A DNA stretch of 35,277 bases from a virus (IMGVR_UViG_651053023_000020), one strand, 5' to 3'. Positions 30,519-35,277 are shown, counted from the stretch's first letter. The notes: a model not told the origin generated them from the letters alone. Made by a program: numbers and translations.

Positions 30519-30884
30519 TTACTTCGTCATGCCATTCAGGGTGTCGCGGCAGACTGTAGCCAGCCGCTGAATTTCCAGCACGGTGTCTTCTGTGTCGGCA
30601 TGGCGATGTGTGATGCGGATGCTGTCGGCAATCACATCGACGATTGCAGAGGATGGGCGCTGGTAAATGCCAATAACGGACGGGGTGCCACCTTCAATGC
30701 GGTAAAGCCTGTAATTTCCCTCGTGGCTGTCAATCATGTAACGACCATCAATAACAATCTTTCCGTCAGCGAGCTGCGGTACAGGCAGGGATTTCAGGTA
30801 CATGTCATAACGATCACGCACGCGAGCGGCAAGATCACGCTCTGTGTTGAGCAGGTATTCAAGAAAGTCGTTGGCGAGAATCAT
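30519..30884 (-). CDS. hypothetical early protein
   Basis: 121-aa ORF directly upstream of A on the same strand. Confidence 0.5.
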   Translation of the reverse strand: MILANDFLEYLLNTERDLAARVRDRYDMYLKSLPVPQLADGKIVIDGRYMIDSHEGNYRLYRIEGGTPSVIGIYQRPSSAIVDVIADSIRITHRHADTEDTVLEIQRLATVCRDTLNGMTK

Positions 30885-30956
30885 TGCGGCAATCCTCTTG
30901 TTACAGATGTGCGAAGGCCTCCCGCCGCAAGGTGCAGGAAAGGCCCGGAACAGGAA

Positions 30957-31187
30957 TTAATGGAGTTTGTTTTGCTGCTGGATGAGATCCTGAAGAGACA
31001 GGAGGTCTTCCGCCAGATAGCTGAATACAGCGGCGCAGTAGTCGGCTGAAATAGTGCTGTTGAGTCTGTGCAATGTGTTGGATTGCATGATAAAGGCGAT
31101 GTGTGCAGCGCGGGTGAGTCTGCGATCGATTTCAGTCTGGATGTGACGACGCTCCGCGATAGTGCGGTGCTGTTTGCGGTTTGCCAT
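30957..31187 (-). CDS. hypothetical small early protein
   Basis: 76-aa ORF with AAGAGG SD. Confidence 0.45.
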   Translation of the reverse strand: MANRKQHRTIAERRHIQTEIDRRLTRAAHIAFIMQSNTLHRLNSTISADYCAAVFSYLAEDLLSLQDLIQQQNKLH

Positions 31188-31368
31188 GGTGTTTGGCCTC
31201 TTCGTTTGTGAGTTTTTGGATACTCACCAACCAGAGTTGAGAATCTCGGGGTGGCGAGACGTACGGGGTTCTCAACACCGGCAAACGAAGAAACCGGCCC
31301 GACCGAAGTCGGCCCCGTACGCCCCACCATAATTCTGATGCGAAAAAGACGTGGCAATACAGTACGCA

Positions 31369-31389
31369 CAAAAAAACCGCTGGCGCGGT
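31369..31389 (-). terminator. intrinsic terminator-like hairpin inside early operon
   Basis: Minus strand reads AACCGC-GCCA-GCGGTT followed by TTTTTTT. Confidence 0.5.
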
Positions 31390-31512
31390 TGTGCGCTTCG
31401 TTTGTCAGCAGGTTGAGAATCCCGGCACCCGTTTTATGAGGTGCAGCGGAAATGTAACCTGACTGATTGCGGTATGGCAAGCGGTTTTTTTGTGTGTGCA
31501 TGTTCTGGTTTC

Positions 31513-31812
31513 TTAGTGGTTCAGAAAAAAATCAAAAACCTTGTCAATGCGTTGCAGCAGCTCTTGCTGTATTGCTTCCGGCGTTTCCGGTTCGCCTGGC
31601 GCCTCCAACGTCGCGCAGAAATCCTCGATTTCATGACGGAGCGTCAGGCGAATGGCGAGAGGTGTGGTTCTGGCGTGCTCCAGCTCATCCAGCAGCGCCA
31701 GCACAGCAGACGGCGAGAGCATTGCGCGAAACGCCAGTAATTTTTGAGGCGTTGCCATTCGTTGCAGGTCAGTCGCCAGTTCGCGTAATTCCTGGTGGTT
31801 GATGGCGCTCAT
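31513..31812 (-). CDS. hypothetical early protein
   Basis: 99-aa ORF overlapping stop of upstream gene. Confidence 0.5.
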   Translation of the reverse strand: MSAINHQELRELATDLQRMATPQKLLAFRAMLSPSAVLALLDELEHARTTPLAIRLTLRHEIEDFCATLEAPGEPETPEAIQQELLQRIDKVFDFFLNH

Positions 31813-32054
31813 GCTCTGGCTTCCTTCAGTAGCTGGTTAAACATGTTGGTAAGTGGATTGCCGCACCCGAACGGCATCGGGTTTATCTGGTAAGAAAAGC
31901 GACCGCCTGTTTTGCGCTCTTTTCTTATGACTGAACCGCTGCGCCAGAGTCGGCGTAACTCCACATTAATGGCTGTGGTTGGGGTATTCAGTGCTGCGGC
32001 GATTTCTCCACCGCTACACCCCGGATTGGCGGCGATATAGTCCAGAATGGTCAT
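31809..32054 (-). CDS. small winged-helix-like DNA-binding protein (tentative)
   Basis: 81 aa, ILDYIAANPGCSGGEIAAAL resembles an HTH/wHTH N-terminus; weak. Confidence 0.45.
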   Translation of the reverse strand: MTILDYIAANPGCSGGEIAAALNTPTTAINVELRRLWRSGSVIRKERKTGGRFSYQINPMPFGCGNPLTNMFNQLLKEARA

Positions 32055-32254
32055 CTGCGTGACTCCTGTACCTGTCGGATAAGGTTCACCCGCACCACAT
32101 TCGTGGCGCAGAAGTAAGTGTCGTCAGTGAGATAAATGTGATGCGCGTCAGGTTGCGAACGGTGACGGTCGAGCGTTTTAATCAGCCGTTCGTCAACTTC
32201 GTATTCACGTCCTCTGGAAGTGAAACGAACGACGGTAAATCGCTTAATTGCCAT
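32051..32254 (-). CDS. hypothetical early protein
   Basis: 67-aa ORF with AAGGAGG SD. Confidence 0.45.
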   Translation of the reverse strand: MAIKRFTVVRFTSRGREYEVDERLIKTLDRHRSQPDAHHIYLTDDTYFCATNVVRVNLIRQVQESRR

Positions 32255-32340
32255 TGCGCCTCCTTGGCGTGTGCGAATACCTCCGCGAATGCGGATTGTT
32301 TTTACATTTTCTTATTTAACCTGTGGTTTTATTTGCTCTG

Positions 32341-32454
32341 TTATTCGCCAGTGAAAAAGCGTTCAATCTTTTTTACTGAATGAATAATTCGCATAATCCC
32401 AATGGCGCAGGCCACCGAAATAATCAGAACAAGCCATGAGATAAATATACTCAT
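32341..32454 (-). CDS. 37-aa hydrophobic peptide (MSIFISWLVLIISVACAIGIMRIIHSVKKIERFFTGE), not in ORF track
   Basis: ATG overlaps stop of upstream gene (TCATG coupling); single predicted TM helix followed by basic tail. Confidence 0.4.
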   Translation of the reverse strand: MSIFISWLVLIISVACAIGIMRIIHSVKKIERFFTGE

Positions 32455-32696
32455 GCAATATTCCCCAGCTTATACGGTTCAATATGTTCCCCGCATTCTG
32501 CGGCACAGATCAGCTCGGAAAGTTCGTTAAGTGCATCCAGATCATCAGCGTAAAAAGCCACGTCATACAGACTCCGGATTGCCCTGGTCAATGAGTCACG
32601 GGCTGCACGTTCAGCATGAGCGCCTGATGCGCTTAAGCGAAAATAAAAACGCTCAAGTGCTTTGTTAATGAGAGTTTTATATTCTTTGCCCATCAC
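32451..32696 (-). CDS. hypothetical early protein
   Basis: 81-aa ORF in early operon. Confidence 0.45.
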   Translation of the reverse strand: MMGKEYKTLINKALERFYFRLSASGAHAERAARDSLTRAIRSLYDVAFYADDLDALNELSELICAAECGEHIEPYKLGNIA

Positions 32697-32704
32697 AACG
32701 CCCT

Positions 32705-32983
32705 TTAATCTGCTTTCTTAATTTCAGCTTCTGAATCCATACAAATAATTTCGATATAGGGTTCATCGCCATTAGCTTGGCGCGCTTTTTCAGCTTCGTT
32801 AATGGCTTCGCGAACGGTCTGGTACGGAAGCTCCACGATCAGTTGTGCGTTGTTCGCATAAACGTGAGTAACTGCTTTTTTTTCTGCCTGGGCTACAGCA
32901 TCAATAGCTGATGCACGTAATAACAGTTCACCGCGAAAATCAATAAAACGGATAAATACACCTTGTGCATACTCTTTGGTCAT
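32705..32983 (-). CDS. hypothetical early protein
   Basis: 92-aa ORF in early operon. Confidence 0.45.
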   Translation of the reverse strand: MTKEYAQGVFIRFIDFRGELLLRASAIDAVAQAEKKAVTHVYANNAQLIVELPYQTVREAINEAEKARQANGDEPYIEIICMDSEAEIKKAD

Positions 32984-32993
32984 AAATCACCTG

Positions 32994-33344
32994 TTATAAA
33001 TCAACCTGTTTAATAAAACTTTGTCCGCGAAGCAGACGATCAACCGTGCGAAGTGCTTCGTATAATGTGAAATCCTGCCCGAACTGATTGTCGCCGCTGC
33101 TCAGTGCAAAAATGCGGTTTCCGGTAAACGGATTGCGTGGGCATTTGTGGACCACGATTCCAGCTTTCTCAATCAACCAGGCGTGCTCGCCGATTTGTTT
33201 TACTGGGTAGCCATCCGGCGTTGCGTGTGTTTCGCTCAGGCTGTAGCGAGAGTTGCTACGTGATGCACTGGTAGCGAAACGGTTAGCATGGCGTTCCGCC
33301 CCGTTGCGGAAGCGCTGCTGTGAAGAATTGCGACGTTCCTTCAT
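32994..33344 (-). CDS. hypothetical early protein (position of P2 orf78/B or 186 cII-like gene)
   Basis: 116-aa ORF directly downstream of cox. Confidence 0.45.
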   Translation of the reverse strand: MKERRNSSQQRFRNGAERHANRFATSASRSNSRYSLSETHATPDGYPVKQIGEHAWLIEKAGIVVHKCPRNPFTGNRIFALSSGDNQFGQDFTLYEALRTVDRLLRGQSFIKQVDL

Positions 33345-33381
33345 ATCAAAATACTCCGCCTAAAATGAATAATGGTTTGAG

Positions 33382-33636
33382 TTATGCTGCTTTACCGCTG
33401 ATATTTCTGTTTCGTCTGCCACTTGTTGGCTTAAACAAAAACAGACGGTTTTCCCAGTCGTGCCATTCCTGAGGTGCGTTTTCGATGAGGCGATCGCATG
33501 CTTCATCCCACGCTTTTCTGTTGATGTAGAGTTCAGCGTTTCCGCCTGGCTTGAGAGGGTCCGCCATATACACCGCAGGTAGCTTTCCTGCTTTTGCCAT
33601 GCTTACGATGGCATCAACGGTCTTTCCGATATACAT
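33382..33636 (-). CDS. cox: Cox-like excisionase / early repressor
   Basis: GKTVDAIVSMAKAGKLPAV...W pattern resembles P2 Cox HTH region; start placed at ATG 33636 with AAGGA SD rather than track's 33807. Confidence 0.7.
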   Translation of the reverse strand: MYIGKTVDAIVSMAKAGKLPAVYMADPLKPGGNAELYINRKAWDEACDRLIENAPQEWHDWENRLFLFKPTSGRRNRNISGKAA

Positions 33637-33915
33637 CGCAAATCCTTCTTTTGACAGGAGATGCGAGGGATTTTCTGAAAGTCGAATTTCTTCACGTTCA
33701 CGTGCTTTGCGTCCTGTTTTTTGATGCTCACCTTCTGGCATTTCTGACAGGTGATCGCATCGTGTTCCGCAAAGTGACTCAGGCGCGTTTTGAGTGCTTT
33801 CTTGCATCTGATATCCTCCGCTATTGGTGCTTTCTTCTAACTAGCACCATTTAGAACTAGTTAGCGCAATTCGTTGTGTGTTAATTGATGTATAAACTAA
33901 GTGAGTTAACTTACT
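33637..33915. promoter_or_regulatory. immunity switch region (expected face-to-face Pe/Pc promoters) with dyad repeat CTAACTAG...CTAGTTAG at 33837-33865
   Basis: Intergenic region between divergently oriented cox and C; operator-like inverted and direct TAG-containing repeats; promoter positions not determined. Confidence 0.4.
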
Positions 33916-34215
33916 ATGTCAACTACCGTAGCTATGAAAATTCGCATCATGCGGAAGTCAGAAATGCTTACACAAGAAAAAATGGCAGAGATTACTGGGC
34001 TTACTCTTGCTGCATTAAGGCAATATGAGCAAGGACGAAATGAACCCAACCTTGAGTCAACAAAAAAGCTTCTGAAAGCCCCCATGTTCCGTAAGTACCG
34101 CGACTGGTTTTTGTTTGATGAAGTTGAACCCAAGGCCGGGCAGGTTGTACCGGCTCTCGCACACATTGGGCAAGGCGAAGCGGAATCATCCCGCTCCGGC
34201 AAGAAAACTGGTTAA
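33916..34215 (+). CDS. C: immunity repressor C (P2 C-type, 99 aa)
   Basis: Length and sequence (..K..LMRKSE.L......A..TG........YE.GR..P.......L..P.F.KY..WF.........GQ..PALAH.GQ.E..S..SG.KTG) match P2 C as recalled. Confidence 0.85.
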   Translation: MSTTVAMKIRIMRKSEMLTQEKMAEITGLTLAALRQYEQGRNEPNLESTKKLLKAPMFRKYRDWFLFDEVEPKAGQVVPALAHIGQGEAESSRSGKKTG

Positions 34216-34281
34216 CGGTTCACCAGGCATTTATTTCCCAGAGCTGTGATCAAGATGATGTTTTCATTGGAGGGCTTCCTT

Positions 34282-35277
34282 ATGTCGATTAAGAAGCTCG
34301 CTAATGGCAAATTTTGTGTGGACGTGCGGCCAGCTGGATCAGAAGGAAAGAGATTCAGGCGGCGATTTGATACTCGTGGTGAGGCTGTTTTGTATGAGCG
34401 TCATGTATTGCAGCATTACCACGACAAAGATTGGGTTGATAAGCCAACAGAACGGCGCTCGCTGAGGGAGTTGCTGGATTGTTGGTGGCTATACCACGGG
34501 AAAAATCATCCTTACGGTGCGATGGAGCGAGTGCGTATTTCTGCGGTCATTAGTGATCTTGAAAGTATTAATGTTACACGCAGTGACCAACTTACTCGTA
34601 AGAACATAATTAATTATCGGTTATTGTTGCTTAATCGCGGAATAAAACAATCCACGGTTAATCGTTATTGCGCAATGATGAGTGGTTTCTTCACAAAACT
34701 AATTGACGCAGAGGAATATTCTGGGGCTAATCCGTTTCATGATGTGAAAAAACTTAATATCAAACAGCCTGAAATGGCTTATTTGTATCATGAAGATATT
34801 CCACGATTACTGGAGTTGTTATCTGGTGATGAATTAAAAGCCGTCTTGTTGTGTCTGGCAACAGGTGGAAGATGGAGTGAGGTTGCAAATATCAAGGGGG
34901 AGCATGTTATTAGCGGCAAAGTCATTTTTATGGAAACCAAAAATGGGAAGCGTCGCGTTATACCTATATCGTCAGAACTGGAGTGCATGATTAAAACAAA
35001 GGCCACTGGTCGTTTAATTTATCCAAGTTATGCAGCTGTCAGAGCTGCTATCAGAAAGGTGAGGCCTGATCTTCCTGAAGGGCAGTCGATACATGTTTTA
35101 CGGCATACCTTTGCCACTCACTTCATGATTAATGGTGGGAATATCATCACTTTGCAGAGAATACTTGGACATAGCACTATTCAGCAGACGATGACTTATG
35201 CCCATTTTGCACCGGATTATCTACAGGATGCTGTGCGCTTTAATCCTGTGGCTGAGTTGTCCAGATATTGCCCATAA
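34282..35277 (+). CDS. int: tyrosine integrase (P2 Int family)
   Basis: C-terminal HxLRHTFATHF...GHS...MTYAHFAPDYL catalytic region; start at ATG 34282 with GGAGGG SD; stop is last codon of window. Confidence 0.9.
   Translation: MSIKKLANGKFCVDVRPAGSEGKRFRRRFDTRGEAVLYERHVLQHYHDKDWVDKPTERRSLRELLDCWWLYHGKNHPYGAMERVRISAVISDLESINVTRSDQLTRKNIINYRLLLLNRGIKQSTVNRYCAMMSGFFTKLIDAEEYSGANPFHDVKKLNIKQPEMAYLYHEDIPRLLELLSGDELKAVLLCLATGGRWSEVANIKGEHVISGKVIFMETKNGKRRVIPISSELECMIKTKATGRLIYPSYAAVRAAIRKVRPDLPEGQSIHVLRHTFATHFMINGGNIITLQRILGHSTIQQTMTYAHFAPDYLQDAVRFNPVAELSRYCP

Follow-up and report, generated by a model that had tools for sequence, protein, structure and literature searches.

Does a 37-codon reading frame in the early region of a temperate phage encode a real protein, and, if it does, what could such a small hydrophobic product do for the phage? 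The ORF in question lies on the minus strand at positions 32341..32454 (stop codon included) of a stretch of viral DNA of 35,277 nucleotides (IMGVR_UViG_651053023_000020), the whole of which is called the window here. The original prediction, made from the sequence alone, described it as an unannotated peptide with one transmembrane helix and a basic tail, translationally coupled to the early gene upstream. In this study, we analyzed the genomic setting, the conservation and the predicted structure of this ORF, and weighed several explanations of its role.

The reading frame and its place in the early operon

Sequence comparison of positions 31800-33400 revealed 99.4% identity to Escherichia phage P88, and 88-93% identity to other Xuanwuvirus phages and to the prophages of approximately 1400 complete E. 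coli genome records. Judging from these identities, the window is a P88-like temperate phage of the P2 family (Peduoviridae, Xuanwuvirus). The window and P88 are collinear from 31495 to 34900. Two genes of the P88 early operon, coding for an SPFH-domain protein (labeled 'lipoprotein/serine protease') and a 67-aa membrane protein, were absent from the window at ~31494/31495; with flanks matching on both sides (109-1195 of the P88 locus, L001), the alignment indicates a two-gene membrane module that is polymorphic by insertion or deletion. The early genes were not discussed in the P88 paper.

The plus strand carries the C repressor (33916-34215) and, from 34246 up to the end of the window, the integrase; the early genes are read on the minus strand. 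The first of the latter is cox (33382..33807), which was identified by Pfam (Phage_Cox, E=5e-28), the P88 annotation and the ORF map. It is followed by DUF4761 (33344-32994), orf92 (32983-32705), DUF4754 (32451..32693; Pfam PF15946, E=3e-54), whose 80-aa product is predicted to be a soluble helical hairpin, and the peptide gene. Gene order indicates that the peptide gene is the fifth cistron of a P2-type early operon (cox, DUF4761, orf92, DUF4754, orf37). The early operon of P2 is read from Pe and is repressed by C in lysogens. Beyond the peptide gene, an 86-nt spacer (32255-32340) leads to orf67, a MarR-like winged-helix gene, an Ead/Ea22-like gene, two RNA genes, orf121 and the replication gene GPA (30512-27720; 930 aa), which is on the same minus strand as the peptide gene.

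The two RNA genes deserve a brief description. A pair of minus-strand segments inside the early operon (31247-31334 and 31370-31444) matched the Rfam families of C4 antisense RNA (RF01695, 79 bits, E=4e-15) and isrK (RF01394, 62 bits, E=4e-12). The ORFs called mechanically over 30881-31501 are probably spurious. By similarity, the pair looks like an antirepressor-control RNA module of the P1/Gifsy type, here in a P2-family phage; the biology of IsrK has been described elsewhere (PMC4825925).

Read from 32454 to 32341, the ORF translates to MSIFISWLVLIISVACAIGIMRIIHSVKKIERFFTGE, which is identical to the peptide originally given. Its ATG (32454-32452) overlaps the TGA of DUF4754 (32453-32451) as ATGA (TCAT on the plus strand), and the junction on the minus strand reads ...GGGGAATATTGCATGAGTATA... 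This start/stop overlap (32451..32454, minus strand), which was kept in 109 of 109 related loci, is a putative translational-coupling junction. An SD-like GGGG (32463..32466, minus strand) is located 8 nt 5' of the ATG, within the DUF4754 coding sequence, and divergent loci carried GAGGAG, AGGGGA, GAGGTGG or AGGAGGA at this position despite differing DUF4754 C-termini. The coordinates, the translation, the overlap of the start with the upstream stop and the presence of a small real ORF in a P2-family early operon, as originally predicted, all agreed with our analysis of sequence, selection and conservation.

The description of the ORF as unannotated was wrong. The gene gp07 of P88 (YP_009113050.1 / AIZ95115.1) is the same gene in the same position after DUF4754, with a protein 100% identical over 37 aa, and differs only in the surrounding genome; its label, 'membrane protein', is an automatic annotation. 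In RefSeq, the same E. coli protein is entered as WP_000021656.1 ('hypothetical protein'), and when 40 E. coli genomes were drawn at even intervals from the ranking, 39 had a PGAP CDS at the matching position. A few relatives' records leave the gene out (e.g., NC_049344 and NC_049341). What the original prediction offered is the correct call of an already annotated gene and not a discovery.

Conservation of the gene and its pairing with DUF4754

The original prediction had named a frame broken in close relatives as the observation that would speak against a real gene. Among 80 IMG/VR loci, which were chosen via the neighboring DUF4754 protein, the ORF was intact at 37 aa in 71, altered only in the tail in eight (45 aa) and broken in one (at codon 9), which does not bear out this objection. 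The 45-aa variants have lost 1 nt from an A6 or T5 run and therefore end in other residues. The neighboring genes were intact in all IMG/VR loci that could be scored (orf92, 77/77; DUF4754, 80/80; orf67, 80/80). The larger set of 109 loci comprised related loci that retain the peptide N-terminus, one further locus being broken at codon 9; 100 of these were intact (37 or 41 aa), and nine had a frameshift in the C-terminal tail. Lengths were 37 aa in 77 loci, 41 aa in 23, 45 aa in eight and 59 aa in one, the last also by a tail frameshift.

Selection was specific to the reading frame: pN/pS among 23 distinct intact haplotypes was 0.20 in the frame of the ORF but 0.89 and 1.71 in the two alternative ones, and 7, 3 and 13 polymorphic sites fell on codon positions 1, 2 and 3, respectively. 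The 41-aa subfamilies were only 54-68% identical. Between subfamilies, pS was near saturation (0.47-0.77), pN was 0.19-0.28 and dN/dS was 0.11-0.35, and the peptide was more conserved than DUF4754. Since the frame is kept in nearly all loci, with frame-specific pN/pS and low dN/dS, these comparisons indicate that the 37-codon ORF is a genuine, conserved protein-coding gene.

An exhaustive HMMER (phmmer) search of 1.84 billion cluster representatives returned nine clusters, including the 41-aa subfamilies, all of which were no longer than 59 aa and came from Escherichia, Salmonella or Shigella-type prophages; no fusion of the peptide to a larger domain was found among them. The genes of the 41-aa subfamilies had an equivalent position, and the 4-nt overlap, in other P2-like prophages, where the order was int, C, cox, ..., DUF4761, DUF4754, peptide, ..., GPA. 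A scan with the DUF4754 alignment added 18 more diverse loci, in all of which the peptide gene was present, and a scan of the genome collection with the peptide alignment confirmed two loci, short peptides falling below the tblastn threshold. Of 5426 complete E. coli genomes, 1379 (~25%) contained the peptide gene, including O157:H7, UTI89 and ST131 strains, and the exact protein occurred on at least 1000 contigs in public collections. Named members were all located in Escherichia, Shigella, Salmonella or Citrobacter prophages. One of the two loci from the genome-collection scan is on a 226-kb contig ascribed to a member of the Firmicutes, 'Vagococcus sp. WN89Y' (NZ_JBQPOM010000071.1); its peptide gene is 100% identical and its flanks resemble those of E. 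coli, and it is probably E. coli contamination of the assembly.

DUF4754 was located directly upstream of the peptide gene in 108 of 108 loci with upstream sequence, and the pairwise identities of the peptide and of DUF4754 were correlated (r=0.86). This unbroken adjacency and the coupling point to joint synthesis of the two proteins and perhaps to a joint function. In one pair of loci (L089 and L090, 3762-4126 in each), the peptide genes were identical and the adjoining DUF4754 proteins only 42% identical (dN 0.61), with a recombination breakpoint at or very near the ATGA junction. Thus, recombination separates the two genes at this junction, and an allele-specific interface between the peptide and DUF4754 appears unlikely.

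The AlphaFold2 model of DUF4754 (pLDDT 89) consisted of a long and a shorter helix (residues 4-48 and 52-66) forming a generic helical hairpin, and a Foldseek search of this model against PDB and BFVD gave no match at E<=0.001. The label of DUF4754 as a 'DNA modification methyltransferase' in the GenBank record of P88 (KP063541, AIZ95114.1) is almost certainly a mis-annotation, for which a PADLOC stretch with E=0.012 to the tail of a type IIG enzyme is a possible origin. Proteins of 103-128 aa listed as 'DUF4754', which might have been taken for natural fusions with the peptide, were wrong-frame frameshift read-throughs, mostly from single low-quality contigs, and the Rosetta-stone idea was therefore rejected.

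The 1-nt deletions of the tail, which lie in the A-run or in the T5 run (32353-32357, minus strand), recurred in at least three backgrounds. Given that approximately 10% of close relatives are tail-frameshifted with intact neighbors, either the phage may do without the tail or some prophage copies may be in decay. An A_AAA_AAG heptamer, a dnaX-type -1 slippery sequence, is present in frame at codons V27-K28-K29 (32368-32374, minus strand), where a -1 shift would yield a 30-aa product ending ...SVKKD. Programmed -1 frameshifting was set aside, as the heptamer was absent from the 41-aa subfamilies and present in 68 of 94 loci, with no adjacent stimulator evident.

A conserved 5-bp hairpin, UCCGC-N4-GCGGA (DNA TCCGC-N4-GCGGA(GG); 32282..32295, minus strand), follows the peptide stop at a distance of ~46 nt in most loci. 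Its loops vary (ATTC, ACTC, ATTA, AACG, AACA, ATCT, TCAC and ACCC); one lineage has a compensatory C:G->U:A change (TCCGT...ACGGA), and another (TCCGT...ATGGA) has a G.U pair that can form in the sense RNA alone. Read on the plus strand, the hairpin scans as a weak terminator with a T-run. As the next gene differs among loci, the hairpin lies at a mosaic boundary, and its link to the peptide gene is putative. In one prophage lineage (L098-L104 and L106), a second, unrelated small hydrophobic ORF of 31-34 aa, MKNVKAIHTIATVWVIFQVSALIWLALKIWE, begins ~12 nt after the peptide stop (e.g., L098 1877-1972) and is conserved with substitutions between loci; it is followed by a sense-strand terminator-like hairpin, AAGGCAT-TC-ATGCCTT with a T-run, which replaces the TCCGC hairpin.

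Predicted structure of the peptide

Codons 3-21 (32392..32448, minus strand) are predicted by Hessa, KD19 and AlphaFold2 to form a transmembrane helix, IFISWLVLIISVACAIGIM, the summed Hessa dGapp of residues 3-21 being -2.9 kcal/mol and the 19-residue Kyte-Doolittle mean 2.68. Codons 22-37 (32344..32391, minus strand) follow as a juxtamembrane, amphipathic and net-basic tail, RIIHSVKKIERFFTGE, which is predicted to be cytoplasmic on the basis of K/R placement and hydrophobic moment (0.72 for a helix of residues 22-35). No charge was found N-terminal of the hydrophobic segment; R22, K28, K29 and R32 all come after it, and the net charge of the tail is +2. Since all K/R residues are C-terminal of the helix, the positive-inside rule predicts an N-out/C-in topology. 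AlphaFold2, run with an 8-sequence alignment, gave a single uninterrupted helix over residues 2-35 (mean pLDDT 90), which is the expected output for any such peptide. Hydrophobicity, charge distribution and the structure model are thus all consistent with the one transmembrane helix and charged tail of the original prediction.

Conservation within the family appeared to follow the helix. Over 14 distinct family members, M1, S6, W7, L10, G19, I24, I30, E31 and F34 were invariant and F4, A17, I20, R22, I23 and K28 nearly so, and position 13 was always S or A. The periodicity of conservation peaked at 105 degrees per residue (~3.4 residues per turn; permutation p=0.004 for residues 2-36) and was marginal in the transmembrane part alone (p=0.06), the sequences behind both values being few and related. 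From this pattern, we infer a packing surface between helices, formed by one conserved face that runs through the membrane part and on along the cytoplasmic extension.

Homology searches gave no lead to a function. Neither the peptide nor any of the 14 family members had a significant match to Pfam, PHROGs, NCBIfam, PADLOC or PDB profiles; only sub-threshold Pfam matches to unrelated hydrophobic families were obtained (PET117, 12 bits with a cutoff of 27; DUF6007, E=0.03), and no family of PADLOC defense models matched the peptide at E<=1. No publication was found on the peptide, its accessions, DUF4754 or DUF4761.

A lipoprotein of the Cor/Llp type was rejected, being incompatible with the replacement of C16 by M or F in the 41-aa subfamilies and with the lack of K/R (a basic n-region) before the hydrophobic core. 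A holin or antiholin does not agree with the location of the gene, which is in the early operon between cox and the replication gene A and not in a lysis cassette beside an endolysin.

Proposed role, rival explanations and known systems

We propose, with a probability of roughly 0.55, that the peptide is an early-lytic accessory microprotein of the inner membrane, which is co-produced with DUF4754 and either binds a partner helix or self-associates; this reading is drawn from sequence comparison and structure models. Ribosomes ending DUF4754 would reinitiate at the overlapping AUG, so that synthesis of DUF4754 and the peptide would go together soon after infection or induction. The peptide of 37 aa would enter the inner membrane as one continuous helix with its N-terminus in the periplasm, residues 3-21 crossing the bilayer and the amphipathic basic tail lying on the cytoplasmic face. 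A packing stripe with ~3.4-residue periodicity (S6, W7, L10, S/A13, A17, G19, I20, I23, I24, K28, I30, E31 and F34) would be the surface for self-association or for contact with a partner, either an inner-membrane protein of the host or the co-translated DUF4754. The peptide would then be a non-structural accessory factor of early lytic development, with a mode of action akin to that of bacterial small membrane-protein modulators and not enzymatic.

Some of the same observations would also fit other roles. The peptide might be a membrane anchor or partner subunit that tethers or activates DUF4754 at the inner membrane, with the pair as the functional unit. Strict co-occurrence (108/108), the invariant ATGA (109/109 loci) and the co-diversification of both genes (r=0.86) are in favor of this, and in the models the small all-helical DUF4754 could pack on the cytoplasmic extension of the peptide helix; however, identical peptides occur beside DUF4754 alleles of only 42% identity, and there are no in-frame natural fusions, the long database proteins being frameshift artifacts. 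We consider this explanation possible, if tentative. It is doubtful that the peptide damages membranes in a type-I-toxin-like or viroporin-like manner, with helices that oligomerize via the conserved face and depolarize or permeabilize the inner membrane early in the lytic cycle, thereby shutting down host processes or blocking superinfection. Its size, single hydrophobic helix and charged C-terminal tail are as in toxins of the Hok, Ldr, Fst and TisB type (PMC8309996; PMC12648545), and the heptad-like conserved stripe fits self-association, but the peptide matched no Pfam toxin family, neither a plus-strand promoter-like site nor an antisense RNA family was found over the gene, and the gene is start/stop-coupled inside an operon instead of forming a separate transcription unit. 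Early depolarization would also hurt a phage that still needs replication and assembly. A further proposal is that of an obligate co-translated early module, in which a type-I-toxin-like helix would be gated, targeted or neutralized by DUF4754 and with which the phage would shut off the host, exclude superinfecting phages or evade a membrane-bound defense. We regard this as unlikely; if true, about a quarter of E. coli genomes would contain a membrane switch under protein control, comparable to holin/antiholin or toxin/antitoxin pairs.

The original prediction had mentioned a host-directed role, such as inhibition of cell division, as speculation, and we leave it at that grade. It seems quite unlikely that the peptide binds a membrane component of the divisome and causes filamentation, as small membrane division inhibitors or phage Kil/Fil do: the family showed no similarity to Fil (hhalign probability 0.4%) or Dhr (0.1%) of phage 186, Kil and Gp0.4 are not known to span the membrane, and no sequence feature favors the divisome over other membrane targets. 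On the other hand, the site in the early operon is equivalent to that of 186 fil and dhr, after which a structured spacer comes, and phage small proteins that block division are known, namely lambda Kil and T7 Gp0.4 (PMC11323111). A factor expressed by the lysogen, with which the prophage would block DNA entry of other phages or modulate host membrane function, is improbable for a gene that belongs to the C-repressed early operon at a distance of 1.35 kb from the switch and lies in a region with two promoter-like sites compared with 3.8 expected by chance, and for a peptide with no PADLOC match that is not a Cor/Llp-type lipoprotein, even though such a role is frequent among small prophage membrane proteins and the gene is found in a quarter of complete E. 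coli genomes. Finally, the peptide itself might be irrelevant and its ORF serve only to let ribosomes move on past DUF4754 into the spacer, with an effect on the hairpin, on the stability of the mRNA or on expression of the next gene. The invariant coupling, the conserved hairpin ~46 nt downstream and the tolerance of recurrent tail frameshifts agree with this explanation, which is nevertheless the least probable of all because of the constraint at the amino-acid level: pN/pS is 0.20 in the ORF frame only, hydrophobic residues are exchanged for hydrophobic ones, S6, W7, G19, E31 and F34 are invariant despite saturated synonymous sites, and conservation has a helical periodicity.

The importance of the proposed accessory microprotein would rest mainly on its prevalence in E. 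coli and its invariant pairing with DUF4754. Small single-helix membrane proteins are a recognized but poorly understood class, of which the phage versions are largely unstudied. Finding the partner of the peptide would assign a role to two orphan genes that are very common in prophages, and could expose a host membrane process that is manipulated by P2-family phages.

With regard to known systems, type I toxins (Hok, Ldr, Fst, TisB and DinQ; PMC8309996, PMC12648545) resemble the peptide in their length of <50 aa and in having a single hydrophobic helix with a charged C-terminus; like the peptide gene, their genes are often located on prophages or other mobile elements. The curated Pfam toxin families (Hok, Ldr, Fst, Ibs, TisB, ShoB and others) gave no match to the peptide. 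A consensus scan of 31400-34300 revealed no plus-strand promoter-like site, which is weak evidence, and no Rfam family was found over or beside the gene at E<=5, although an sRNA of a new kind could be present. The toxins have their own transcription unit with an antisense RNA, whereas the peptide gene is coupled within a polycistronic early operon.

The division inhibitors offer a likeness of another sort. Like the peptide gene, 186 fil and dhr, lambda Kil and T7 Gp0.4 are small non-essential genes of early operons. In the 186 record, where fil carries the annotation 'overexpression blocks cell division', this gene and dhr overlap, and the terminator tR1 comes after them. The analogy is positional only, in that 186 Fil (75 aa) and Dhr (66 aa) are without an N-terminal transmembrane helix, unlike the peptide. 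Among Fil, Kil, Gp0.4 and DicB, Fil was the division inhibitor compared directly with the family by hhalign, and the Pfam and PHROG searches gave no match. A short resemblance was observed between IMRIIH (peptide residues 20-25, at the membrane exit) and IIRIVH in the hydrophobic C-terminal part of 186 Fil (residues 59-64; L095 3453-3680), loosely extending to ...V.K, which is not significant (0.4%) and includes H25, a residue that is not conserved in the peptide family.

Lambda CIII is a small amphipathic peptide of the early operon that inhibits the membrane protease FtsH and has no transmembrane anchor. The peptide may share with CIII a small early-operon amphipathic helix at the cytoplasmic face of the inner membrane; no homology is expected, and CIII is a candidate for the type of mechanism only. 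The known kind to which the peptide would belong is that of phage and bacterial single-helix microproteins (reviewed in PMC12648545 and PMC11323111). It differs from AcrZ, MgtS, MgrB, KdpF and YohP in being phage-encoded, in its presumed early lytic expression and in having no homology to them, and it shares with these proteins (PMC12648545) the single-helix form of a microprotein, for which the binding of another helix, in a larger membrane protein or in a further copy of itself, is the only plausible activity.
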